From Escherichia coli (lineage in GTDB: Bacteria; Pseudomonadota; Gammaproteobacteria; Enterobacterales; Enterobacteriaceae): a DNA stretch of 64,000 nt. Both the position numbers and the translations under genes were made by a program. The stretch lies in NCBI RefSeq assembly GCF_044324875.1, contig NZ_CP172185.1; one strand, written 5' to 3'. The notes beneath the pieces are model-generated. The model was not told the DNA's origin and made no database searches. It saw only the letters and a list, made by a program, of their open reading frames with translations. Shown in pieces: positions 4,683-54,954 of the stretch. Each line of letters opens with the position of its first letter. Position 1 is the stretch's first letter.

Positions 4683-5548
4683 CAGAACGTAAGGTAAAGG
4701 GAGATGAAAAAGGCAATAGCAGAACTGAGTGACAGTGAAACCATTCTGGCGTACAGGGTTGGATGGTGAAACTGATAAAAAAACCCCTCTGAAAATTCTG
4801 TCAGAGGGGTGTAGTCAATAAGGGTGTCATATTCAACATGAAGATGTCTTCTGGGAATGTTTACATAGCAAATGCTTTCACTCCGGTAATTAATTTCCGT
4901 GATTAACTGCTTTCGATCAATAAAGGAATTGCAAAAGTGTGATCTTGTTCACGACATTGTGGATGATAATATGCCTGATGTCTGAATCCGGAAACAGTGA
5001 TCTGGCGGTTTCATGTGAAGTTGACGGATAAAAAATCCGCACGACCAGACAGACGTGCGGTTTACGAAATTCGTAACAAGAGGCTTTTCTACGGATCACG
5101 TGGTGCGTGCCACGTGAAATTTTTGTAGCGCAAAATGTGTGATGTGTAAATACAAGGAAGGAAAAAAGTTAAATCGGTGGAAGTCCATGCCTGCCACATG
5201 TATGTCTGCATTCCTCGTTTTGAACAGAATTCTCACCAGACATCGTGAATTTCTCATTCAATCATCAGAGATATTACCCAGGATTTTTATTGTTTTGTGA
5301 TAGCAGTACTTTAAATGTTCAGATGCTAAAATAAGCGCGCTTATTATAATTATAGTTATGATGTTTTATCTTTATGTATTTTAATGATTTTCTCGTCATT
5401 GCTTTTCTGCTGCTTAAATTGAGGGCGCATATTATACACAATAATATTCCTGGCATTATTAAATTAATAAAAGAGGATTCTTATCACTGTATTTTTGCTC
5501 CGCACTACCGTTCTGGCTGGTGAAGTAATAATACAGGAGAATAACAGA

Positions 5549-7096
5549 ATGCTTAAAAGACGTGATGCTTTTTTAAAGAAAAGCGCGCTGGCAGTGAGTG
5601 TGGCCCTGCTGCTCTCATCTCAGGCTCAGGCTCAGGATATTTTATTCGGACCGATTCAACCTGGCGAAGATAATAGCTTTCTTGTTGGAGATTCAGTAGC
5701 TGGCCGTTCGTCTGGTGACATAAGAAATGTATGGTTGGTGGGTGATAATTCTTTTTTATTAGACTCAAACAGGACTGTGCTTTTGGGGAATAATTCTGGT
5801 GTTGTGAGCTCTCCGGGAAGTGTGAGTCTGGGGCATGATGCACTTATTGCTGACTCTGAATGGGGGACTGTTGCAGGAAAAGAAGCGTCACTTATTTCTT
5901 CTCGTCAGAGCTCGGCAATTGGTGCGTTTTCATCTGTGCAGGATTCTACCAGTTCTGTAGCTCTGGGCCATGGCTCACAGGTGTCGGGAGAAAATAACGT
6001 GGTATCTGTTGGTGCCGGGCCTGAGGGATATGGAGAGAGTGTCAAAGGAGCACCGGAAACCCGCCGGATTATAAATGTGTCTGATGGTATCAATAACACA
6101 GATGCAGCGACGGTAGGGCAACTGAATGAACGATTTGATGATGCACAGGTCTTTTTGTTGCAGACGAATGAAAGAATTGACGAGACAGATAAACGTCTTT
6201 CAACAGTTCATGCTGAACTCAGCAGGGATATTATTGCAGGCACATCGGCAGCGGTGACGTATACAGATGTAACAGCGCTTGCACTTCAGGATGAGATAAA
6301 GGATGGGACGAACAAAGTACGTGATGAGTTGAAATCACAGGGAGACAGTCTGCGTGGTGAGATAGGCGGTGTATACAGAGATGCCCGTGCTCATACTGAC
6401 AGTCAGGTCACAGCAGTACGTGATGAACTGAAGGCAGAGGGAGACAGTCTGCGCGGTGAGATAGGCGGTGTATACAGAGATGCCCGTGCTCATACTGACA
6501 GTCAGGTTACAGCAGTACGTGATGAACTCAGCAGGGATATTATTGCAGGCACATCGGCAGCGGTGGCGTATACGGATGCATCTTCTCTTGCTCTTCAGGA
6601 TGAAATAAAAGAAAAAGCGGATGAAACAGTTCAGGTTTCCCGGGCTTATACAGATAAAAGTGTACGGGATGCCCGTAAAGAAGCGAAAAGCCAGGCAGAA
6701 CATCTCAGCGATGTGCTTGTGAAGAACAGGGCGCAGACGGATGCAGCAATAGCCTCAAATACAGCAGCGATAAGGAATAACAGTCATCGTCTGGATTTGA
6801 CGGAAGCCTGGCAGAAGATGGCGACAGAGAGAATGAATAATATGCAGGAGCAGATTAAAGAGAACCGGAAGGAGTTAAGGGAGAGTGCAGCCCAGAGCGC
6901 GGCACTGGCAGGTCTTTTCCAGCCATACAGTGTTGGAAAATTTAACGCGACAGCAGCCGTTGGTGGTTACCGTGATGAGCAGGCCATTGCGGTGGGCGTG
7001 GGCTACCGTTTCACAGAGAATGTGGCAGGAAAAGTTGCAGTTGCTGCAGGTGGGTCATCCGCATCGTGGAATGCTGGTGTGAATTTTGAGTTCTGA
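5549..7096 (+). CDS. Trimeric autotransporter adhesin (YadA-like C-terminal anchor) with internal repeats
   Basis: Signal peptide [28 protein letters not shown] after a GGAGA ribosome-binding site. Coiled-coil stalk with repeats. C-terminal membrane anchor …[19 protein letters not shown]…GVNFEF. The ORF track starts 18 codons upstream at 5495. Confidence 0.75.
6320..6517. repeat. Two near-identical 99-bp in-frame tandem repeats inside the adhesin gene
   Basis: GGAGACAGTCTGCG(T/C)GGTGAGATAGGCGGTGTATACAGAGATGCCCGTGCTCATACTGACAGTCAGGT… recurs with 99-bp period (encoding [30 protein letters not shown] twice). A second repeat pair (…[13 protein letters not shown]…LALQDEIK) brackets them. Confidence 0.85.
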
Positions 7097-7157: not shown

Positions 7158-7613
7158 ATGCTGGATATAATCCTGGCGACGAGAGATATTTATTTTGAAA
7201 AAGCCCTGCGAGAGATATTTGGAACCGTAAGCAGTCGAATCAGATATATAGAAGATGCCATATCAGACAGAAGAAGGGTGCAGTCAGGCAGGTCATTCAG
7301 ATATTATTTTGTATTCTGTGATGATGAGTATACAGATATTGTTCGTATTCTTTTTACCGGAGAGGCCTGCTGTATTCTGAATAAGTCGATGCTGAATCTG
7401 AGAGCGGCCGGAGGTGTGTTGACGCTGGAAGAGCGCAGAGCGGTACTGAACCGGTATTACAGAGGTTTAAGTATTGCGGAGATTACAGAAGAGACGGGGC
7501 AGAATGACAAGACGGTATACGGTCATCTTCGTCGTGCACTGCAGCGGTCTGGATTCCGGAAGGGGCGTTTTATAAAGGGGAGAGAAGCGGCGGGGGATTC
7601 AGGTGTTGAATAA
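7158..7613 (+). CDS. Small putative HTH regulator (LuxR / sigma-70 region-4-like C-terminus)
   Basis: 151 aa; C-terminal …LTLEERRAVLNRYYRGLSIAEITEETGQNDKTVYGHLRRAL… resembles a LuxR-type helix-turn-helix. Sits 60 bp downstream of the adhesin gene. Confidence 0.4.
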   Translation: MLDIILATRDIYFEKALREIFGTVSSRIRYIEDAISDRRRVQSGRSFRYYFVFCDDEYTDIVRILFTGEACCILNKSMLNLRAAGGVLTLEERRAVLNRYYRGLSIAEITEETGQNDKTVYGHLRRALQRSGFRKGRFIKGREAAGDSGVE

Positions 7614-7859: not shown

Positions 7860-9170
7860 GCACACATGTTTTAATTCTGCACTGAATTCAGAATGGGTAA
7901 TCAGTGACCGTCCAGGCGGTCACCGAACTCGATAATAAAGCGGCTCATTGCCATTCGCCAGTCCTTCAACGGCATCGTCCATTTCTGGGACGCAGACTGG
8001 ATTGCCAGCCACACCACTTTTTTCACCGAGTCGTCTGTCGGGAACACTTTACGCTTTTTGATCGCATGGCGGATCACGCTGTTTAGCGACTCGATTGCAT
8101 TCGTCGTATAGATCACTTTGCGGATGTCCGTTGGATAAGCGAAGAACGTGGCAAGATTCGGCCAGTTAGCCTGCCAGCTTCGGCTTATCTGAGGATAGCG
8201 ACTGTCCCAGGCCGCAGCGAACGCTTCCAGTGCCTGCTGACCTGCCTCTTCCGTGGGAGCCTGATAAATCGCTTTCAGGTCGCGAGTGACGGCTTTGTAG
8301 TCCTTCCATGACACGAAGCGCAGGCTGTTGCGCACCATATGCACGATGCATAACTGGATGCGGGCCTTCGGATATACTGTGTTGATGGCATCCGGGAAGC
8401 CTTTCAGGCCATCCACACAGGCGATGAGGATATCGTTCAGACCGCGGTTTTTCAGTTCAGTCAGCACATTGAGCCAGAACTTCGCCCCTTCATTTTCGGC
8501 CAGCCACATACCCAGCAGTTCCTTCTGACCTTCGATATTGATGCCCAGTGCCAGGAACACCGATTTGTTGATGACGCGACTGTCCTGCCGAACTTTCAGG
8601 ACGATACAGTCAAGATAAACAATGGGGTAAACAGCATCCAGTGGTCTGTTTTGCCATTCTACAACCTGCTCCATCACGGCATCGGTGACCTTTGATATCA
8701 GTGCCGGTGAAACATCTGCGTCATACAGTTCTTTGAACGCAGTAGCTATCTCACGGGTGGTCATCCCTTTGGCATACAACGAGAGGATCTGGTTATCCAT
8801 CCCGGTAATACGGGTCTGATTTTTCTTTACCAGTTGTGGTTCGAAGGTACCGTCACGATCGCGCGGAGTACGCAGTTCCAGTGGACCGTCGCCTGTGATA
8901 ACGGTCTTTGTGGAATAACCGTTGCGGGAGTTAGCTCCTGGTCTGGACTGATTTTTCTCATACCCAAGATGGTGTGTCATCTCTGCATTGAGAGCGGCTT
9001 CAACGCTGAGCTTTTTCAGCAGCCGATCAAACTGACTGAGGTCTTCAGGGGTTTTGAGGTTTTTGGCCAGTTCGTTAGCCAGAGCCTGTAACTGTTTTTC
9101 GTCCATAAATTAACCTTCATTTGATGCTGGATTGAACATATCAAAATCAGGCAATTACACAAATCTATGT
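7860..9170 (-). mobile_element. IS256-family insertion sequence (boundaries approximate)
   Basis: Single 401-aa transposase ORF with about 50-60 bp flanks; terminal repeats not confidently delimited by eye. Confidence 0.6.
7901..9106 (-). CDS. IS256-family transposase
   Basis: 401 aa, MDEKQLQALANELAKNLKTPEDL… with …YLDCIVLKVRQ… and …CIVHMVRNSL… motifs typical of IS256 (mutator-type) transposases. Confidence 0.85.
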   Translation of the reverse strand: MDEKQLQALANELAKNLKTPEDLSQFDRLLKKLSVEAALNAEMTHHLGYEKNQSRPGANSRNGYSTKTVITGDGPLELRTPRDRDGTFEPQLVKKNQTRITGMDNQILSLYAKGMTTREIATAFKELYDADVSPALISKVTDAVMEQVVEWQNRPLDAVYPIVYLDCIVLKVRQDSRVINKSVFLALGINIEGQKELLGMWLAENEGAKFWLNVLTELKNRGLNDILIACVDGLKGFPDAINTVYPKARIQLCIVHMVRNSLRFVSWKDYKAVTRDLKAIYQAPTEEAGQQALEAFAAAWDSRYPQISRSWQANWPNLATFFAYPTDIRKVIYTTNAIESLNSVIRHAIKKRKVFPTDDSVKKVVWLAIQSASQKWTMPLKDWRMAMSRFIIEFGDRLDGH

Positions 9171-9277: not shown

Positions 9278-10051
9278 TCATAATTGCCATTTTAAATGCA
9301 GGCCTAATTGCAGCCCATTGAAATTATGGTTCGGTGTTTTATACCAAACTTTACCTGCCGTCAGCCCGAGATTAAGTTGCTCAGTCAGCGGTTGAATACG
9401 TTGTAAACTGACGCTCTTCATGCTGCCGTATCGTGTTTCTGGCGTCCAGTCATAGGTGTAAGCACCTGTTCCGCGGCTTAGCCATAGTTGTGTATAACCA
9501 GCACCGCGCGGGTCCTTCAGACGCACGGAAATCATATTGCTGTAACTACCAGCTGCATCGCTGGAGTCATAATGGGTATAGCGGTAGCTGGTGATCACCG
9601 GGCCAGTATAGAGAGATACGCCGCCTTGCCAGGCATCGACTTCGACATCATCGTAATATTTAGTGTAGCGATAACCGGTCGTGAAAAGCGTTTTTGGCAA
9701 CAGGGCCAGGTTAATATCCTGACGAAAATCCTGACGGGCAAAGACCGGCGTATTATCCGCAAAGGCAATACCCGTTCGGGTTGTCAGCCAGTTATTCCAT
9801 TTGTACCAGACTGCACCCTGGCCGCGAGTGGCATTGAAATGTTCAGTTTCATAATCACGACGCCCCTGGGAAAGATTAAAAAGCAGCGTTGCGTTTTCAA
9901 CTTTTGCCACCAGTTCAGCATAAGCTAAATTACGGTTGCCATGGTCGCCAGAATAATCGGTAAAATCGTAGCCCGTGGTAATGGAAGTTAACCCGGCATA
10001 AGCGGGCAATGCACTAAAAAAAAACGGCATTAATAACGTATGCTTTATCAT
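9278..10051 (-). CDS. yaiO: YaiO-family outer-membrane beta-barrel protein
   Basis: 257 aa, signal peptide, alternating aromatic/Tyr-rich strands, C-terminal …GLHLKWQL; closely resembles E. coli YaiO as recalled. Confidence 0.7.
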   Translation of the reverse strand: MIKHTLLMPFFFSALPAYAGLTSITTGYDFTDYSGDHGNRNLAYAELVAKVENATLLFNLSQGRRDYETEHFNATRGQGAVWYKWNNWLTTRTGIAFADNTPVFARQDFRQDINLALLPKTLFTTGYRYTKYYDDVEVDAWQGGVSLYTGPVITSYRYTHYDSSDAAGSYSNMISVRLKDPRGAGYTQLWLSRGTGAYTYDWTPETRYGSMKSVSLQRIQPLTEQLNLGLTAGKVWYKTPNHNFNGLQLGLHLKWQL

Positions 10052-10052
10052 T

Positions 10053-10763
10053 TTAATCTCCTGTACGGATAAGTTCTTGTCGGAGTGAGTAAGTTCCGGT
10101 AGGTAAATTACGTTCTACAATCACGCGCGGGCCAAGTTGCGTGTTCGGGGAAATAATTCGCCCGGGCAAAATAATAACCTGTACGCCAAGGCGTGAACGC
10201 TGCCCGATATAACAACCTAATTTATCGCATCCGGTAGCGATAATTCCATCTGGCGTTCGAACAGACACGGGCTGTTCATCCAGACGATGATTACTGGTAC
10301 GTACTTGTGCGCCCAGATATGCCTGGTTTGCAACTACCGAGTCGGCAACAAAGCATTGCGGACCAATCGTTGCTTCCGTTTCAATAACCGCATTTTTAAT
10401 TTCGGTGGCAAAACCAATTTTTACGCCATTGCTGATTATTGTGCCAGGACGAATAAACGCATAATTACCTATCAGGCAGTTTGCGCCAATCACTACCGGC
10501 CCCTGAATAACGGCACCGTGGCAAATACGGGTATTCGCGCCGATAACAACTTCACCTGCACTTTCATCAATAATTACCTGGTCTGCAATCTGAGTATTTT
10601 TCTCTTTAACATTAAGCTCCAGATAGTTTTTCAGTTTCTGTGACAGAAGGTTGGGAATAAGCGGTTGACGTTTCCACCAGTGCGGAATAGCGGGTGGGTT
10701 TGTCGCGCTGAGGTTCGCGTCCAGTAAAAAAGGCAATAAGTCCATAAATAATCCAGATGGCAT
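10053..10763 (-). CDS. yaiX: Hexapeptide-repeat (left-handed beta-helix) acyltransferase, YaiX-like; true start probably downstream of 10763
   Basis: Repeated [LIV]-G-x-x-x-x-I hexapeptide pattern (…VIGANTRICHGAVIQGPVVIGANCLIGNYAFIRPGTIISNGVKIG…). The ORF as drawn overlaps the upstream gene by about 150 nt. Confidence 0.65.
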   Translation of the reverse strand: MPSGLFMDLLPFLLDANLSATNPPAIPHWWKRQPLIPNLLSQKLKNYLELNVKEKNTQIADQVIIDESAGEVVIGANTRICHGAVIQGPVVIGANCLIGNYAFIRPGTIISNGVKIGFATEIKNAVIETEATIGPQCFVADSVVANQAYLGAQVRTSNHRLDEQPVSVRTPDGIIATGCDKLGCYIGQRSRLGVQVIILPGRIISPNTQLGPRVIVERNLPTGTYSLRQELIRTGD

Positions 10764-11808
10764 AAGCTAATAATACATACACAACGGAAAGCGGAGCTAA
10801 AGGTACCAACAACCAGCAACGATGAAACCAGGCGCTAAAAGTACCAATAACACAAACTATGCCGACCCAGATAAGCGGGAACATTGCCATCACCACACCA
10901 TGTGGCCCGGTGGTGATGAATTCATTAAACCAGGTAGTGAGATAAATCCCAACGCCATAAAGCACAACCAGCAGCATAGGAAATATACTGAAGATACCGA
11001 AGCGGCTAAATAAAAGTCTTTTATGCAGGCGCATACAGACCGCGTAGCCCACAATCCAGCGCCGCCAGCGACGCCACTCCTCACGAAGGCTGTTGCATTC
11101 CTGTGGGTATACGATACAGCGATTCACCTGCCGAATACGGTAACCATTGGCGACCAATGTCCAGGTGAGATCGAGATCTTCAACTTTGGTACGGTCCGAA
11201 AAACCGAATTTACGCAGCACATCGGTACGGAACATCCCGCAGGCACCGCTGATAATAAACGGTGCACCACCCAGGAACTGCTGTAGCGTACGCTTCATAG
11301 CAATCATCGGCAACTTTACGGTGGCGCGGATATGTGGCAGCAGACCTGCCCCTTTTAACGCGGTGGAGGGAATTCCGCCAACGGCATCAGCGCCGCGCTC
11401 AATTTCTGCCAGCATATAGCCCATTCCATCACTGTCAGGTGGAACGAAAGTATCTGCATCACTTAAAAATACTTGATCACACGTGGCGTATTTTATTCCA
11501 TGCATTAGTGCGCCACCTTTACCGGTGTTTTTTTGCGTGACGGCAACAAAGCGGTCGCCCCATTTGCGTTTGACTTCCGCCATGACCGCTTCGGTATTGT
11601 CCGTGGAGCCGTCGTTAACGCAAATTACCCGGCAAAAATAAGGGTTACGCAGCAGATTATCCAGTGACTGCGCCAGACACGGGCCTTCGTTATAAGCAGG
11701 TATAATGACGTCAATACAGCCTTTCTTTTGACTGGGTTTACGTCTTAGCGTACTTAAAAACCATAGCAACATTACTATGGACATACAGATAAATATCCAA
11801 GTCTTCAT
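10612..11808 (-). CDS. yaiP: Family-2 glycosyltransferase (YaiP-like), membrane-anchored
   Basis: 398 aa; N-terminal TM, then …VIIPAYNEGPCLAQSL…VNDGSTDNT… (GT-A fold DxD-type motifs) and C-terminal TM helices. Confidence 0.75.
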   Translation of the reverse strand: MKTWIFICMSIVMLLWFLSTLRRKPSQKKGCIDVIIPAYNEGPCLAQSLDNLLRNPYFCRVICVNDGSTDNTEAVMAEVKRKWGDRFVAVTQKNTGKGGALMHGIKYATCDQVFLSDADTFVPPDSDGMGYMLAEIERGADAVGGIPSTALKGAGLLPHIRATVKLPMIAMKRTLQQFLGGAPFIISGACGMFRTDVLRKFGFSDRTKVEDLDLTWTLVANGYRIRQVNRCIVYPQECNSLREEWRRWRRWIVGYAVCMRLHKRLLFSRFGIFSIFPMLLVVLYGVGIYLTTWFNEFITTGPHGVVMAMFPLIWVGIVCVIGTFSAWFHRCWLLVPLAPLSVVYVLLAYAIWIIYGLIAFFTGREPQRDKPTRYSALVETSTAYSQPSVTETEKLSGA

Positions 11809-11821
11809 TTATGAAATCCAG

Positions 11822-12475
11822 TCATAACACCATTTTGTATATAATAAAACCTTCGCACATAGCGCAGTTTGCCTGTTGCCCTCTGAAACTGGCCTGACTA
11901 TGTAAATATTCATGTTGCATATATTTACGTTGACTCTGGCTTTTATGCTCTTTCAATGCCATTAATTTTTTATTAAATTCATTCTGCTCTATTGCTTCAA
12001 AAGCATGAGGGGAAAATGAAATCCATGCACTTGGTGTTTCATATCCCAGTATCTGAGGAATATAACGACAGGCAACCATTGATGCCTGATAAACAGCAAT
12101 ATGATCCTGATGCCTGTCAGAATTATTCATGGTATAAACTCTCGTAATTTCGACATCCTGAGGGATATCATTAGCAATTATATTTTCCAGGGAAGATATC
12201 ATGTCTCTTATCTGTAAATAAAGACGGGTATCCTCAAAATTAAGATGAATTGACTTGTCACATCCCAGTATTTTTAATGCTTTCTGTGACTCTTTATGAC
12301 GGTCAGTATCTTTTCCCCCACAACAACCGGGGGTCATAACTACCGCGATAGTATATATATTTCTGGCAGAAAAAGTTGCAAGAGATGCACCACATCCTAA
12401 TTCTATGTCATCAGGATGTGCACCTATTGCCAGTACACCTGTTCTCTTTCCTGAATATGTGATAGAATTTAACAA
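11822..12475 (-). CDS. yaiS: PIG-L/LmbE-family deacetylase (YaiS-like)
   Basis: 217 aa with …AHPDDIELGCG… and …HQDH… zinc-binding signature of LmbE-type N-acetylglucosaminyl deacetylases. Confidence 0.75.
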   Translation of the reverse strand: MLNSITYSGKRTGVLAIGAHPDDIELGCGASLATFSARNIYTIAVVMTPGCCGGKDTDRHKESQKALKILGCDKSIHLNFEDTRLYLQIRDMISSLENIIANDIPQDVEITRVYTMNNSDRHQDHIAVYQASMVACRYIPQILGYETPSAWISFSPHAFEAIEQNEFNKKLMALKEHKSQSQRKYMQHEYLHSQASFRGQQANCAMCEGFIIYKMVL

Positions 12476-13407
12476 GATACCTTCCTTATCTACTTCCTGT
12501 TATATGCTTCTCCCCATTATAAATATTACCATTGTATTAATTTCAAATTAACTAATTAACTTTCTCAGATGATGCCTGACATCAGTAATACACTGATTCT
12601 ATCTTGTAGTGAGGACTTTTAGCACCAGTTCACTGAGCTCATGCTTAACTGCATCATGGAATCTGATGTCAGCTGGCCTGTGACAGGAAAATTATCGAAC
12701 CGGAAAAGTAAAGTGGAACTGAATTCACACTGAAGGAGATATTTCGATTCACAGCATGCTGGCTCAAGGTTTGTTGAATAAATAGAACTTTTGGGTAACT
12801 GGAGGAGCTGAGCGCAACCGTAGCTTACACCGGCTCCCCATGGCAAAGTTAAATTTTAAACTCACCAGACAAGTCGCACACAGCCAGGTACTGCTGACCG
12901 AAATGAAACCGTCTTTTATGATCTGGTCGGCAGGATAGCGTCCTTCGTCAGAAATACTGGTATGTATTGCTCCGGCTCAGAGATTTAACTTCAGATACGG
13001 CAAACAATTGCTGGAAATTGTTGCGTAAGTCGTTGACTGAATTGAATATTTACTTAATCCAGAGAGTGCAGAAGAAAGTCATTTAGCGCAATATGAAGAC
13101 TTTATCGCAGCATGGCCCCCGTTTTGTGAAGCCTGGGGATCGTCCGTTATTACTGATGACGCTTATCGTACCGTTCCATGTTCTGGTCTCAGGTCCGGAC
13201 AGCCTGTTCCGTGCAATTTTCGATGAGCAGGGCATTCCTGCCTGGCTGGGGGAAACAAAATGCCGGAGCACGACAGCCGTCAGAATCGATCGTCTGGCAG
13301 GTATAAAGATATTGATGTTCTCTGTTTTGATCACGATAACAGAAAAGACATGGATGCGCTAATGGCAAGCCCGCTGTGGCAGGCTGCCCGCGTTCTGGAC
13401 AAAACCA

Positions 13408-13917
13408 TTGGATGCAAAGCGTGAGTATACGAATTGCGCTTTTCCCCGCGTCATTGCCGCGTTTTCTGTCGCCGTCATGCTTGCTCTGGTTGTATGCGTA
13501 GTCTGGCAAGTATTTAGCCGCTACGTACTTAACCAGCCAAGTACATTAACCGATGAGCTGGCACGCTTTTTGATGATCTGGGTAGGATTATTAGGTGCTG
13601 CATATACCGTCGGCGCGCAGAGACATCTCTCTATCGATTTATTTGCTCTCGCCCTGAATAAGCGCAAGCAATTACTTCTTAGTATAGTCATTAACATTCT
13701 CATTTTAGGTTTTGCCGGTTCGGTCATTGTGACTGGTGGCCTGAAATTAATTGATAAAACACTGACAACATCACAGGTATCTGCCGCGATGCAAATACCG
13801 ATGGGATACGTATATATCATTCTGCCATTAAGTGGATTGGTGATGATGTTTTATGCCTTGTGTTTTATTAATCAAAGCATTCAACAACTGAAACAACCTG
13901 CGCAGGAGGCCAGTTAA
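13408..13917 (+). CDS. TRAP transporter small permease (DctQ-like)
   Basis: 169 aa, four hydrophobic helices; directly followed by the large permease with overlapping stop/start. Confidence 0.7.
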   Translation: MDAKREYTNCAFPRVIAAFSVAVMLALVVCVVWQVFSRYVLNQPSTLTDELARFLMIWVGLLGAAYTVGAQRHLSIDLFALALNKRKQLLLSIVINILILGFAGSVIVTGGLKLIDKTLTTSQVSAAMQIPMGYVYIILPLSGLVMMFYALCFINQSIQQLKQPAQEAS

Positions 13918-15218
13918 TGGATAGTTATATCGCGCTTACACTGTTTGGCTGTTTTTTTGTGCTGGTCTTTATTGGTGTGCCCATTTCGTTCTCAATCGGT
14001 ATTGCCACTGTAGCTTCAATGCTGTTGATGTTTCCCTGGGATATCGCGGCAATCACTGTTTCGCAGCGACTGGCTAATGGACTGGATAACTTTGCCCTGT
14101 TGGCAATCCCCTTTTTCATCTTTGCCGGAACGCTGATGAACAGCGGCGGTATTGCGATACGTTTGATTAACCTCGCCCAGGTAATGGTTGGCCGCGTTCC
14201 TGGTTCGCTTGGTCATGTGAACGTCCTGGCGAATATGATGTTTGGTTCCATTTCTGGTTCAGCCGTTGCGGCAGCTGCTGCCGTTGGTGGCACACTGAAT
14301 CCCATTCAGACCAAAGAAGGTTATGATCCGGCATTTTCTACCGCTGTAAACGTCTCATCCTGTATTACTGGATTACTGATACCGCCCTCAAACGTGTTAA
14401 TTGTATTTTCCCTGACAGCTGGCGGCGTTTCTGTAGCATCGCTATTTATGGCGGGATATTTGCCAGGGATCTTAATGGGTCTCGCGGTAATGATAGTCTG
14501 CGGCATTATTGCTAAACGCCGTGGCTACCCACTTTCAGAAAAAGCAACCTTTGCTCAGGCATGTAAAGCGTTTCTGGATGCCTTACCAAGTTTGCTTCTG
14601 GTGTTCATTGTAATGGGCGGCATTCTGGGCGGCATTTTTACCGCAGCTGAAGCGTCAGCAATTGCCGTGGTCTACACATTTATTCTCTCGGTGCTGATTT
14701 ACCGGGAAGTAAAATGGCGCGATTTACCCAAACTGATTCTGGAATCGGTTGTTACCACTTCGATTGTATTACTGTTGATCGGTTTTTCCGTGGGCATGTC
14801 CTGGGCAATGACCAATGCTGATATTCCTTATATGATCAGCGACGCGTTGATGGGGATTTCTGATAACCCACTGGTCATATTGCTGCTGATTAATATCGTC
14901 TTATTAATTGTCGGCATCTTTATGGACATGACACCGGCTGTACTAATCTTCACACCAATCTTCTTGCCGATTGCACAAGAGCTGGGAATGGATCCGGTAC
15001 ATTTCGGTATTATGATGGTGGCCAACCTTTGTATTGGGCTGTTAACACCGCCGGTGGGTAGTGCGCTATTTGTTGGTTGTTCTATTTCAGGTGTGAAGAT
15101 TCAACATTTGCTTAGACCATTGCTACCCTTTTATACAGCATTGCTAGTCGCATTGATGATGATCACTTACATTCCACAAATCTCTTTATTTATCCCACAA
15201 TTTCTAGGGCTGATGTAA
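13917..15218 (+). CDS. TRAP transporter large permease (DctM-like)
   Basis: 433 aa polytopic membrane protein, MDSYIALTLFGCFFVLVFIGVPISFSIGIAT…; no cognate binding-protein gene in the window. Confidence 0.8.
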   Translation: MDSYIALTLFGCFFVLVFIGVPISFSIGIATVASMLLMFPWDIAAITVSQRLANGLDNFALLAIPFFIFAGTLMNSGGIAIRLINLAQVMVGRVPGSLGHVNVLANMMFGSISGSAVAAAAAVGGTLNPIQTKEGYDPAFSTAVNVSSCITGLLIPPSNVLIVFSLTAGGVSVASLFMAGYLPGILMGLAVMIVCGIIAKRRGYPLSEKATFAQACKAFLDALPSLLLVFIVMGGILGGIFTAAEASAIAVVYTFILSVLIYREVKWRDLPKLILESVVTTSIVLLLIGFSVGMSWAMTNADIPYMISDALMGISDNPLVILLLINIVLLIVGIFMDMTPAVLIFTPIFLPIAQELGMDPVHFGIMMVANLCIGLLTPPVGSALFVGCSISGVKIQHLLRPLLPFYTALLVALMMITYIPQISLFIPQFLGLM

Positions 15219-15356
15219 ATAATTAATAGCCGGACAATTTTTATTGTCCGGTAAAATTCATCGTAAGCGCTCCTTCTGTGCCGTCTTGTGGTGGTTGTCC
15301 TGTCTGGCAACAATCGCGTCCATCTATTGATGGACACGAACGATGTGGATTTGCCC

Positions 15357-16262
15357 CTATATATCCAGACATCTGTTATCACTTAACCCATTACAGGCCC
15401 GCTGCCGCAGATATTCCCGTGGCGAGCGATAACCCAGTGCACTATGCGGATGCCATTCGTTATAATGCTCGAACGCCTCTGCAAGGTTCTTTGCTGCCGT
15501 TAACCCGTCTGGTTTGGGCATGACACTGATGTAGTCACGCTTTATCGTTTTCACGAAGCTCTCTGCTATGCCGTTACTCTCCGGACTCCGCACCGCCGTG
15601 TTCTTCGGTTCAAGCCCCAACATCCGGGCAAACTGCCGTGTTTCATTAGCCCGGTAGCATGAACCATTATCCGTCAGCCACTCTACTGGAGACGCCGGAA
15701 GCTCGTTGCCGAAGCGGCGTTCCACCGCTCCCAGCATGACGTCCTGTACTGTTTCACTGTTGAAGCCGCCCGTAGTGACCGCCCAGTGCAGTGCCTCACG
15801 GTCACAGCAGTCCAGCGCGAACGTGACTCGCAGTTTTTCTCCGTTATCACAGCGGAACTCGAACCCGTCAGAGCACCATCGCTGATTACTTTCTTTCACA
15901 GCCACTCTGCCGGTATGTGCCCGTTTCGATGGCGGTACAGCGGTTTTTCGCTCAAGCAACAGCGCATTCTGGCGCATGATCCGGTAAATACGTTTGGCAT
16001 TGATCGCAGGCATACCATCAAGTTCTGTTTGTCTGCGAAGCAGCGCCCATATCCGACGATAACCATATGTGGGTAGCTCTCCGATAACATGGTGTATACG
16101 GCGAAGCACATCCGTATCATCCGTGTGACGGCTGCGGCGTCCGTCCTTCCAGTCATCGGCTCGTCTGAGAATTACGTGCAACTGCGCACGCGACACCCGG
16201 AGACAACGGCTGACGAAGCTTACTCCCCATCCCCGGGCAATAAGGGCGCGTGCGCTATCCAC
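15357..16262 (-). CDS. insD: IS2 InsD (OrfB transposase)
   Basis: 301 aa, [34 protein letters not shown]… with DDE core. Confidence 0.9.
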
Positions 16263-16630
16263 TTTTTTGCTCGCCCATATTCAACGGCTTCTTTAAGGAG
16301 TTCATTTTCCATCGTTTTTTTGCCGAGCAGACGCTGGAGTTCTTTAATCTGCTTCATGGCGGCAGCAAGTTCAGAGGCAGGAACGACCTGTTCTCCGGCA
16401 GCCACAGCAGTAAGACTTCCCTCCTGGTATTGCTTACGCCAGAGAAATAGCTGGCTGGCTGCCACACCATGTTGCCGGGCAACAAGGGAGACCGTCATTC
16501 CCGGTTCAAAACTCTGCTGAACAATAGCGATCTTTTCCTGTGTAGTACGCCGTCTGCGTTTCTCCGGTCCTAAGACATCAATCATCTGCTCTCCAATGAC
16601 TAGTCTAAAAACTAGTATTAAGACTATCAC
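16220..16630 (-). CDS. insC: IS2 InsC (OrfA)
   Basis: 136 aa, [56 protein letters not shown]…. Confidence 0.9.
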
Positions 16631-17482
16631 TTATTTAAGTGATATTGGTTGTCTGGAGATTCATGGGGCCAGTCTACTCCCGCATTAAAATATACTGTTC
16701 TTTCCGGATAATTACGTTAAAATAGACACCTGCGTGCATCTGTGTCAGACTCCGTTAGATACCAGCGTACATTGTAAACATGCCGGATGCACGCAATACA
16801 ATAATCGGTCTTTTCGGAGTTATAGTCACCAGGCTGGCATCCCGTAAATATGTATCAGGTAGCAATTCAGGAAGCGAACAAAAGCGCCTGGAGAAGGTTA
16901 TCTCTGATAATAATTTACATGAAATGTCTCCTTTATTCTTCGCGAATAAGGCCTTCAGTGTTCTCCCCTTTTCAGCAATTCTTACCGTAGTAATCACTCC
17001 TGCCTGTGTATAACACGAGAATTGCCAGAGTTTAACGTTTCGGTATCGTTATCCTGCATGATGTTGAACAGAACCGGGCGTGAATTCTGCGCCAGAATTT
17101 TCTTTCGAGGAACATTCCGGGTTATCTGTAGTACAGGAGGAGATTTTCTCCTATTTCAAATAAAATTCAATGACAGGTGAATATTTAAATATAAATGCAT
17201 CGCTTCAACAGAGAAATCGGAATTACGCCCGGAACCAGGTCTGAATGAATAATGGAGGAGGAAAAATAATATTATTGATGAAAATATCAAATCAAGTCCC
17301 CCTTCTCCTTCCCCAGCTTAAATATACTTACTTTTTCACTGGATAATATGTTATTGAATTACAAAGTTGATCCTGATATACATGATTTCCGGCTCTTGCA
17401 TCCAGTGATAACTTTATATACTCCTGCAAAGGCGAACTTCGTAAAAGTATACTTTTCTGTTGTAAGCATTGAGGTATCGAAT

Positions 17483-50064: not shown

Positions 50065-50160
50065 AACCGATATTCCTTTTTGCAGATAAATGAAAACGCC
50101 AGCCCTGTTCAGGCTAGACTGGCCCCCTGAATCTCCAGACAACCAGTATCACTTAAATAA

Positions 50161-50571
50161 GTGATAGTCTTAATACTAGTTTTTAGACTAGTCATTGGAG
50201 AACAGATGATTGATGTCTTAGGGCCGGAGAAACGCAGACGGCGTACCACACAGGAAAAGATCGCAATTGTTCAGCAGAGCTTTGAACCGGGGATGACGGT
50301 CTCCCTCGTTGCCCGGCAACATGGTGTAGCAGCCAGCCAGTTATTTCTCTGGCGTAAGCAATACCAGGAAGGAAGTCTTACTGCTGTCGCCGCCGGAGAA
50401 CAGGTTGTTCCTGCCTCTGAACTTGCTGCCGCCATGAAGCAGATTAAAGAACTCCAGCGCCTGCTCGGCAAGAAAACGATGGAAAATGAACTCCTCAAAG
50501 AAGCCGTTGAATATGGACGGGCAAAAAAGTGGATAGCGCACGCGCCCTTATTGCCCGGGGATGGGGAGTAA
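50161..50571 (+). CDS. insC: IS2 InsC
   Basis: 136 aa, identical in length and nearly identical in sequence to copy 1. Confidence 0.9.
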
Positions 50572-51434
50572 GCTTAGTCAGCCGTTGTCTCCGGGTGTCG
50601 CGTGCGCAGTTGCACGTCATTCTCAGACGAACCGATGACTGGATGGATGGCCGCCGCAGTCGTCACACTGATGATACGGATGTGCTTCTCCGTATACACC
50701 ATGTTATCGGAGAGCTGCCAACGTATGGTTATCGTCGGGTATGGGCGCTGCTTCGCAGACAGGCAGAACTTGATGGTATGCCTGCGATCAATGCCAAACG
50801 TGTTTACCGGATCATGCGCCAGAATGCGCTGTTGCTTGAGCGAAAACCTGCTGTACCGCCATCGAAACGGGCACATACAGGCAGAGTGGCCGTGAAAGAA
50901 AGCAATCAGCGATGGTGCTCTGACGGGTTCGAGTTCTGCTGTGATAACGGAGAGAGACTGCGTGTCACGTTCGCGCTGGACTGCTGTGATCGTGAGGCAC
51001 TGCACTGGGCGGTCACTACCGGCGGCTTCAACAGTGAAACAGTACAGGACGTAATGCCAGGAGCGGTGGAACGCCGCTTCGGCAACGATCTTCCGTCGTC
51101 TCCAGTGGAGTGGCTGACGGATAATGGTTCATGCTACCGGGCTAATGAAACACGCCAGTTCGCCCGGATGTTGGGACTTGAACCGAAGAACACGGCGGTG
51201 CGGAGTCCGGAGAGTAACGGAATAGCAGAGAGCTTCGTGAAAACGATAAAGCGTGACTACATCAGTATCATGCCCAAACCAGACGGGTTAACGGCAGCAA
51301 AGAACCTTGCAGAGGCGTTCGAGCATTATAACGAATGGCATCCGCATAGTGCGCTGGGTTATCGCTCGCCACGGGAATATCTGCGGCAGCGGGCTTGTAA
51401 TGGGTTAAGTGATAACAGATGTCTGGAAATATAG
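50529..51434 (+). CDS. insD: IS2 InsD
   Basis: 301 aa DDE transposase. Confidence 0.9.
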
Positions 51435-51496
51435 GGGCAAATCCACAGGCTGGCGTCAGGTTAATGAATCGTGGTGAGTGAGATGATGAGTGAAAC

Positions 51497-52327: not shown

Positions 52328-54954
<2,627 letters not shown>

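Follow-up and report, generated by a model that had tools for sequence, protein, structure and literature searches.

An additional yaiSPXO cassette on a mosaic genomic island of Escherichia coli, possibly for a hexosamine glycan at the cell surface

The yai genes are among the long-standing puzzles of Escherichia coli, and one of them, yaiO, is widely used as a marker of the species. A stretch of 64,000 nucleotides from an E. coli genome (contig NZ_CP172185.1 of assembly GCF_044324875.1; this whole stretch is hereafter the window) carries relatives of yaiS, yaiP, yaiX and yaiO at positions 9278 to 12475, which raises the question of whether these are the ordinary core genes or an addition to them, and what the four proteins might make together. 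We conclude that they are an additional, horizontally acquired allele of the cassette on a mosaic genomic island and not the core yai locus, and that they may form a pathway for a hexosamine glycan. What is new here is a further allele and location of an already known cassette that lacks an assigned function: a preliminary description of the window had supposed that yaiS, yaiP, yaiX and yaiO have no established product, and the literature searched indeed assigns no function to these genes, yaiO figuring there as a verified or predicted outer-membrane protein, as a marker in polymerase chain reaction (PCR) assays for E. coli and as an entry in screen lists.

The list of open reading frames (ORFs) places four intact, tightly packed genes on the minus strand in the order S-P-X-O from position 12475 downwards. 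The first is a yaiS-like gene for a zinc deacetylase of the PIG-L/LmbE type (12475..11822; 217 amino acids, TTG start), followed by a yaiP-like gene for a membrane-integrated glycosyltransferase of family 2 (GT2; 11808..10612, 398 amino acids), a yaiX-like gene for a left-handed beta-helix (LbH) acyltransferase (10646..10053, 197 amino acids from the start chosen by the Prokaryotic Genome Annotation Pipeline (PGAP), with further candidate ATG starts at 10745 and 10763) and, last, a yaiO-like gene for an outer-membrane barrel (10051..9278, 257 amino acids). A 13-nt gap separates yaiS from yaiP, yaiX overlaps the 3' end of yaiP by 35 nt and a 1-nt gap precedes yaiO, a spacing that is operon-like. 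The same four genes are annotated by RefSeq in genomes identical to the window over the cassette region. Judged by the curated Pfam and NCBIfam cut-offs, all four domain assignments hold: YaiS scores 79.7 bits against PF02585 PIG-L (cut-off 28.2), YaiP 102.8 bits against PF00535 Glycos_transf_2 (cut-off 23.3), YaiX 66.7 bits against PF00132 Hexapep (cut-off 27) and YaiO 93.1 bits against PF19413 (cut-off 23.9), the last also giving a full-length family match to TIGR04390 over residues 22-255 (177.5 bits, cut-off 32). The preliminary description of a co-oriented deacetylase, GT2 enzyme, acyltransferase and YaiO-type barrel between 9278 and 12475 was therefore accurate, as was its remark that the acyltransferase gene is uninterrupted, since the yaiX frame is unbroken in the window whereas that of K-12 is split by IS2A.

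To place the cassette we compared its 3.2-kb block by megablast with 5,426 complete E. coli genomes. One place covering at least 80% of the query was found in 4,785 genomes and a match of 90-95% identity in 4,684, but a match of at least 99% identity in 15. All of these 15 carriers have a second matching place, each has all four genes annotated as intact, and nine bear source labels of chicken, poultry or avian origin. In one of them, ECCNB12-2, the cassette is identical to that of the window and the second place is the tauA-frmR interval, 1.5 Mb away and with four open frames. The window cassette shares 88-92% DNA identity with core copies. Blastn of oriented loci with 700/500-nt flanks, together with the megablast limits, delimits a homology block common to all E. 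coli copies, whether of the core tauA-frmR, asn-island or plasmid type, at 9308..12474 (minus strand); similarity between copies starts with the first codon of yaiS and gives out some 30 nt short of the yaiO stop codon, and flanking non-coding DNA is therefore not common to the copies.

The best-known copy, the yaiO-yaiX-yaiP-yaiS locus of K-12 (b0358, b4579, b0363 and b0364) between frmR and tauA, has the same families in the same order and orientation, and its YaiP, YaiX and YaiO are 92-96% identical to the window proteins, YaiS about 64-66%, the yaiS of the window being also the lower in GC content. The two differ in that one occupies the frmR-tauA interval and the other an island with no flanking DNA in common, and in that the K-12 cassette is doubly defective while that of the window is intact: in addition to the IS2 insertion in yaiX, a CAG-to-TAG amber change at codon 186 cuts K-12 yaiS short (record 384059-384616), other core alleles having an open frame of 221 codons. 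The preliminary description had spoken of the corresponding E. coli yai genes; the window genes are not these core genes but an extra island allele with about 8-10% DNA divergence and a YaiS only 64% identical in protein. Its suggested synteny comparison with the K-12 yai locus confirms that the context differs from the frmR-tauA interval, and the genes are neither unaltered nor in core context. At the core locus of ECCNB12-2, PGAP calls yaiS a partial pseudogene (363 bp), a call that we do not follow since the frame is open for 221 codons; at the place of ykiC in K-12, this locus has an antisense ORF of 120 bp annotated as 'hypothetical'.

Divergence from the core copy of the same genome, for which ECCNB12-2 served as reference, is mosaic along the cassette. 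Protein identity between island and core copies is 94.5% for YaiP, 95.9% for YaiX and 91.8% for YaiO, but 63.6% for YaiS (66% at the DNA level), and GC content is 37% in yaiS against 46-48% in yaiP, yaiX and yaiO. The closest YaiS allele is that of the asn-island type (DA33135, SE15), at 71% identity, and pairwise identities between the E. coli YaiS allele types range from 64 to 79%. Ratios of non-synonymous to synonymous substitution (dN/dS) are 0.06-0.26 for every gene and every pair and 0.09-0.18 for yaiS, indicating that the divergence of yaiS is old and under purifying selection rather than a sign of decay. The extreme 3' end of the island yaiO (9278-9310) is a second place of difference, its last ~10 codons diverging from all other E. 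coli alleles to give a protein ending in …KWQL. Because the island allele differs from the core mainly in the deacetylase, its product may differ from the core product in N-substitution. The asn-island type is a third chromosomal home of the cassette (DA33135, 1608749-1611955), on an island flanked by IS66 remnants and ibrA/ibrB, with cobUST and asn tRNA genes nearby; in DA33135 and SE15 it is the sole matching place.

Beyond E. coli the four genes form an old and self-contained unit, mobile across two proteobacterial classes, islands and plasmids. The S-P-X-O order is contiguous in 18 of 18 species-representative loci, with YaiP relatives 52-93% identical, the hosts comprising Escherichia whittamii, Citrobacter, Superficieibacter, Ignatzschineria, Stenotrophomonas, Lysobacter, Pseudomonas viridiflava, Acinetobacter, Sphingomonas and other Alphaproteobacteria. 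The same order recurs in five further metagenome or assembly loci, and a sixth, on a 2-kb contig, keeps the end of yaiP followed by yaiX and yaiO, its YaiO being only 26% identical to the window protein. Clustering of flanking ORFs from 21 loci yielded no fifth partner gene common beyond one genus. Conservation falls in the order YaiP, YaiX, YaiS, YaiO. In PLSDB, 56 records (a few of them chromosome-sized) contain the cassette, with alleles 73-90% identical to the window, and 38 of the 56 are predicted to be conjugative; on pMDL26 the cassette adjoins a fimbrial operon and transposase fragments. Citrobacter braakii ATCC 51113 has two full cassettes on different contigs, whose YaiP proteins share 80% and 76% identity with that of the window, so that double carriage is not peculiar to E. 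coli.

The chemistry of the pathway is best approached through YaiP. Its catalytic signature, D65, D116-A-D118, E209-D210 and R246-W-R-R-W250, aligns with the VNDGSTD, DGD, TED and QRLRW motifs of PgaC, to which it is 28% identical overall, and is invariant in 30 homologues. The best family-level match is the PgaC/IcaA equivalog TIGR03937, at 106 bits against a cut-off of 422.3, which makes YaiP a relative and not an orthologue of PgaC/IcaA. One N-terminal and three C-terminal hydrophobic segments (1-23, 264-294, 301-329 and 330-364) are present, and the predicted fold, with a GT-A domain on interface helices and a transmembrane bundle, resembles those of hyaluronan and cellulose synthases. 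The same 30 homologues also share invariant cysteines (C43, C62, C189, C230, C237 and C257) and a C-terminal cytoplasmic motif …GREPxRDKPTRY, which are unusual among GT2 synthases.

YaiS and YaiX point to the same kind of sugar. The metal motifs AHPDD and HQDH occur in YaiS of the window and in 21 of 21 cassette relatives. Among solved structures the window protein is closest to diacetylchitobiose deacetylase (8bgn, E 1.7e-10), with TT1542 and BshB1 also near; the score against the BshB1 equivalog TIGR04001 (66.2 bits) falls below the cut-off of 182.5. For YaiX, NCBIfam gives as best match the acetyltransferase part at the C-terminus of archaeal-type GlmU, and among solved structures the LbH domain of ST0452 (5z09/2ggo, E 3e-23) is nearest, 157 residues aligning without gaps to ST0452 242-398; scores against the LpxD and GlmU equivalog models are far below their cut-offs. 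ST0452 is an N-acetyltransferase for glucosamine-1-phosphate (GlcN-1-P) and galactosamine-1-phosphate (GalN-1-P), and acts on an amino sugar with an anomeric phosphate. Its N331, R333 and D335 are kept in YaiX as N119, R121 and D123, and G95, P96, R116-N119, R121 and D123 are invariant in the YaiX family. No signal peptide or membrane segment was detected in either YaiS or YaiX, their maximal 19-residue hydropathies being 1.11 and 1.58; lacking any hydrophobic segment, both should be cytoplasmic, which would place modification before export. YaiO, by contrast with these two, carries a Sec-type signal read from the sequence as …ALPAYA|G and is confidently predicted by AlphaFold2 as a 14-stranded barrel from residue 19 (predicted local distance difference test score (pLDDT) 89.6).

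Since YaiP, YaiS and YaiX each independently point to N-acetylglucosamine (GlcNAc) or glucosamine (GlcN), we consider the chances evenly balanced that the window holds, as a complete island-borne extra cassette, a self-contained unit for a hexosamine (GlcNAc-type) glycan at the cell surface. YaiP, built like the hyaluronan, cellulose and poly-N-acetylglucosamine synthases, would polymerise or oligomerise the sugar from a uridine diphosphate (UDP)-sugar at the cytoplasmic face, the chain passing through its own transmembrane bundle. In the cytoplasm, YaiS as a putative zinc de-N-acetylase would strip the N-acetyl group from a primer, donor or terminal residue, and YaiX as a putative acyl-coenzyme A-dependent LbH N-acyltransferase would edit the amino group of such a residue, primer or donor, so that acetyl would be taken off and the amine then left free or re-acylated. 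YaiO would serve as a 14-stranded monomeric channel for the product across the outer membrane. The sequences themselves show which genes are present and that they are intact, where they lie, how unevenly they diverge, that the cassette is conserved and which folds and motifs its proteins resemble; the sugar identity, processivity, order of reactions, direction of transport and expression in this scheme are what we infer from them. The preliminary description of a make-modify-export unit is thus partly supported: linkage, gene order and the lack of a fifth gene across classes and plasmids agree with such a unit, but the barrel is no recognised polysaccharide secretin, so that its role in export is a presumed one.

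Several observations weigh against this scheme. YaiP has only four hydrophobic segments and is as close to the non-polymerising PcManGT as to true synthases, so that its fold does not settle processivity and self-translocation. YaiO is nearer in structure to the uptake or hydrophobic-substrate channels CymA, OmpG and FadL than to 16-stranded porins for exopolysaccharide (EPS), and the island protein ends in Leu where 20 of 28 relatives have Phe, a C-terminal Phe being the usual signal for outer-membrane assembly. In YaiX, the position of His308 of ST0452 (which, with His363 of GlmU, we take to be the catalytic histidine) is occupied by Pro96, invariant in 25 YaiX sequences, among which no His is invariant. 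Some LbH N-acetyltransferases are active without a catalytic base, so that Pro96 does not exclude activity. Removal of acetyl by YaiS and an acetyltransferase-like reaction by YaiX could also cancel out in a futile cycle unless YaiX takes another acyl donor or position. Upstream of yaiS, the presumed promoter region (12476..12890) is island-specific, 415 bp long and AT-rich (40% GC); it gave no homology by blastn to the upstream regions of other cassette copies and no minus-strand sigma-70-like site in a promoter scan. Counts from the promoter and terminator scan were not above those for shuffled sequence, and a search for RNA elements upstream of yaiS returned no Rfam match beyond one chance-level hit (E 0.77). 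Finally, the literature searched gave no product, phenotype or expression data for any copy of the cassette.

Known pathways resemble the cassette in part. Like it, the systems for poly-N-acetylglucosamine (PNAG; PgaABCD), cellulose (BcsABZC), alginate (Alg) and Pel combine a synthase-fold GT2 enzyme, a deacetylase and an outer-membrane barrel in one operon. Unlike them, the cassette has no partner or domain that binds cyclic di-GMP (PgaD, PilZ, Alg44, PelD), none being found by Pfam in the four proteins and no fifth gene in the 21 loci. Such systems combine a periplasmic tetratricopeptide repeat (TPR) scaffold with a porin of 16-18 strands, either fused or as partners, whereas the cassette has no TPR scaffold and a 14-stranded barrel that is not of the PgaA/BcsC porin type, and the co-polymerase of synthase-dependent EPS systems is without counterpart in it. 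Nor does it have a periplasmic enzyme for modifying the polymer: YaiS has the LmbE fold, not that of a periplasmic deacetylase of carbohydrate esterase family 4 (CE4), and is predicted to be cytoplasmic, and the LbH acyltransferase is an extra. A second likeness, of logic only, is to NodC-NodB-NodA, which likewise bring together at the cytoplasmic face a membrane GT2 enzyme of about 400 amino acids, a GlcNAc de-N-acetylase and an N-acyltransferase; NodB (CE4) and NodA are, however, unrelated in fold to YaiS and YaiX, YaiP scores 37.6 bits against the NodC model (cut-off 550), and the NodABC product leaves by the NodIJ ATP-binding cassette system where that of the cassette would leave by the outer-membrane barrel. 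The succession of GlcNAc de-N-acetylase and acyltransferase is shared with LpxC/LpxD, MshB/MshD and PIG-L then PIG-W; LpxD also is an LbH protein, and MshB and PIG-L belong to the YaiS family, but these pathways have neither a synthase-type GT2 enzyme nor a dedicated outer-membrane barrel. CymA, OmpG and Omp33 are monomeric 14-stranded channels as YaiO is predicted to be, although sequence identity is only 6-10%; unlike YaiO, they import solutes and are not encoded beside biosynthetic enzymes. It would be bolder, and we think rather improbable, to see in the cassette a fifth kind of synthase-type pathway, regulator-free and mobile, making a short GlcNAc oligosaccharide or glycolipid in the manner of a non-homologous NodC/NodB/NodA analogue; the product would have its terminal amino group stripped and re-acylated in the cytoplasm and would leave by the 14-stranded barrel, divergent YaiS alleles would tune it, and the island and plasmid copies of livestock-associated E. 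coli would aid colonisation of the host.

The main rival to a surface glycan is a glycolipid, which we regard as possible but clearly less probable. YaiP would here place one or a few GlcNAc residues on a lipid such as diacylglycerol or polyprenyl phosphate, YaiS would remove the N-acetyl group and YaiX attach a different acyl group to the head group, and YaiO, in the manner of FadL-class barrels, would deliver the amphiphile to the outer leaflet. YaiP does match Pfam Glyco_transf_21, the ceramide glucosyltransferase family, its RxxRW motif being as in that family, and ST0452, the relative of YaiX, works on an amino sugar bearing an anomeric phosphate. Transfer of GlcNAc followed by de-N-acetylation and acylation is the logic of glycosylphosphatidylinositol (GPI), lipid A and mycothiol synthesis. 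However, the best family-level match of YaiP is to PgaC/IcaA, YaiO is 257 amino acids long against about 430 for FadL and has no FadL-type N-terminal hatch domain, and there is no flippase within the cassette.

A further alternative, which we think unlikely, is that the island copy is a redundant duplicate, unexpressed or unneeded, that adds nothing beyond the core copy. Every carrier has another copy, no promoter is recognisable in the unrelated upstream region, the surroundings are rich in insertion sequence (IS) elements and gene fragments (the fhuD fragment and the transporter genes without binding protein described below), and the two lesions of the K-12 core copy imply that the cassette is dispensable in the laboratory. 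Set against this, neither the window nor the annotation of the 15 carriers shows a break in any of the four ORFs, the catalytic motifs are retained, and the deacetylase is a distinct allele that is not decaying (dN/dS 0.09-0.18). That islands and conjugative plasmids have taken up the cassette intact more than once also speaks for selection.

It is very unlikely that the proteins serve uptake or salvage, with YaiO importing chito-oligosaccharides and YaiS deacetylating them as in the archaeal chitin pathway. In structure YaiO is most like CymA and OmpG, channels that take up oligosaccharides, and the nearest solved relative of YaiS is a diacetylchitobiose deacetylase, but a membrane GT2 enzyme with synthase motifs and an N-acyltransferase would be out of place in catabolism, and the cassette has no conserved companion gene for an inner-membrane importer, a kinase or a glycosidase. 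That the genes are simply the core yaiOXPS set at its normal chromosomal place is hardly tenable despite the shared order and families with K-12, given their neighbours (IS elements, a YadA-like adhesin, remnants of a tripartite ATP-independent periplasmic (TRAP) transporter and a serine protease autotransporter of Enterobacteriaceae (SPATE), not frmR/tauA), the 88-92% DNA and 64% YaiS protein identity to the core, and a true core locus 1.5 Mb off in ECCNB12-2, whose island cassette matches that of the window exactly.

The surroundings of the cassette are accessory DNA throughout the window, with IS66, IS3, IS256-like, IS2 and IS100-like elements and, as further cargo, genes for the YadA-like adhesin, a SPATE, SodC, PhoX and a phosphoethanolamine transferase. 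An IS256-family element named IS1414-like by RefSeq (7924-9148, minus strand; transposase ORF 9106..7901) lies directly against yaiO on its 3' side and was inserted recently, the copy at this position being missing in 12 of the 15 carriers of the allele, including strain 144. A full-length IS2 (15346-16676, minus strand), aligned over 1331 of 1331 nt and 95.7% identical to K-12 IS2A, lies 2.9 kb from the yaiS start. The preliminary description of a module bounded by IS256-family and IS2 elements was therefore right for the yaiO side only. Two flanking elements of different families, one of them 2.9 kb off, also rule out a composite transposon. Between yaiS and IS2, on the plus strand, the 5' side of the cassette carries an fhuD/TroA-type binding-protein pseudogene fragment (12891..13385, from the RefSeq annotation of an identical stretch) and genes for the small (13408-13917) and large (13917-15218) TRAP permeases (ORFs with RefSeq names), which are not accompanied by a binding-protein gene. 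Together (12891-15218) these look like what is left, stranded, of a locus for a transporter; strain 144 has even a truncated small permease gene.

On the other side, a YadA-like trimeric autotransporter adhesin gene (5495-7096, plus strand) includes a 99-bp tandem repeat at 6316-6528 (2.2 copies, 93% matches) and is of variable length, measuring 1668 bp in ECCNB12-2, 1548 bp in TUM9803 and 1167 bp in strain 144. At 7158-7613 (plus strand), on the cassette side of the adhesin gene and convergent with yaiO, is a gene whose small product has a helix-turn-helix (HTH) domain of the sigma-70 region-4 type; the gene adjoins the cassette in all island versions inspected, and its product may regulate a neighbour. 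PADLOC assigned no anti-phage defence function to this sigma-like HTH protein or to the four cassette proteins. Further along, an intact gene for a SPATE (S6-family) autotransporter protease of 1274 amino acids (27908-31732, plus strand) is preceded by an AbgT-family transporter gene (26037-27596), and the island-borne phosphoethanolamine transferase gene (43668-45170, plus strand, 500 amino acids) adjoins a gene for a small outer-membrane protein (42777-43493) and may bear on the modification of lipid A.

Where the island is inserted can be followed only in part. A gene for a tyrosine integrase of 421 amino acids (46828-48093, minus strand) is followed directly by a second island unit, which includes DUF4942, an IS2 at 50115-51445, an IS100-like element at 52394-54195, DUF932 and a GTPase. 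No tRNA gene was detected across the whole 64-kb window (the positive control passed), so that its own insertion site is not visible in it, and the integrase, second unit and lack of tRNA together suggest tandem or nested islands. In ECCNB12-2 and TUM9803, the two closest complete genomes, the cassette island ends at an integrase and tRNA-Sec. A placement of the window at selC, from assumed colinearity with NZ_CP033635.1, was dropped: the window is colinear with ECCNB12-2 from 3001 to 31835 only, and coverage of 31500-56000 does not exceed 65% in any genome of the collection. The selC placement is accordingly confined to the two closest complete genomes.

For the yai genes at large, these results bear first on the choice of material, since the two lesions of its cassette make K-12 the wrong strain for study and intact alleles like that of the window the right one. 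The mobility of the closed four-gene unit among chromosomes, islands and conjugative plasmids of different proteobacterial classes also makes function testable through a 3.2-kb transplant, and the predicted folds point to a narrower chemistry, that of a synthase-type pathway for GlcNAc whose N-editing is cytoplasmic. Should no product be made, the locus would be mere island baggage. Divergent second copies could affect PCR assays that target yaiO, and the additional copies in strains associated with poultry could matter for colonisation, provided that the product is a glycan that is secreted or displayed at the surface.

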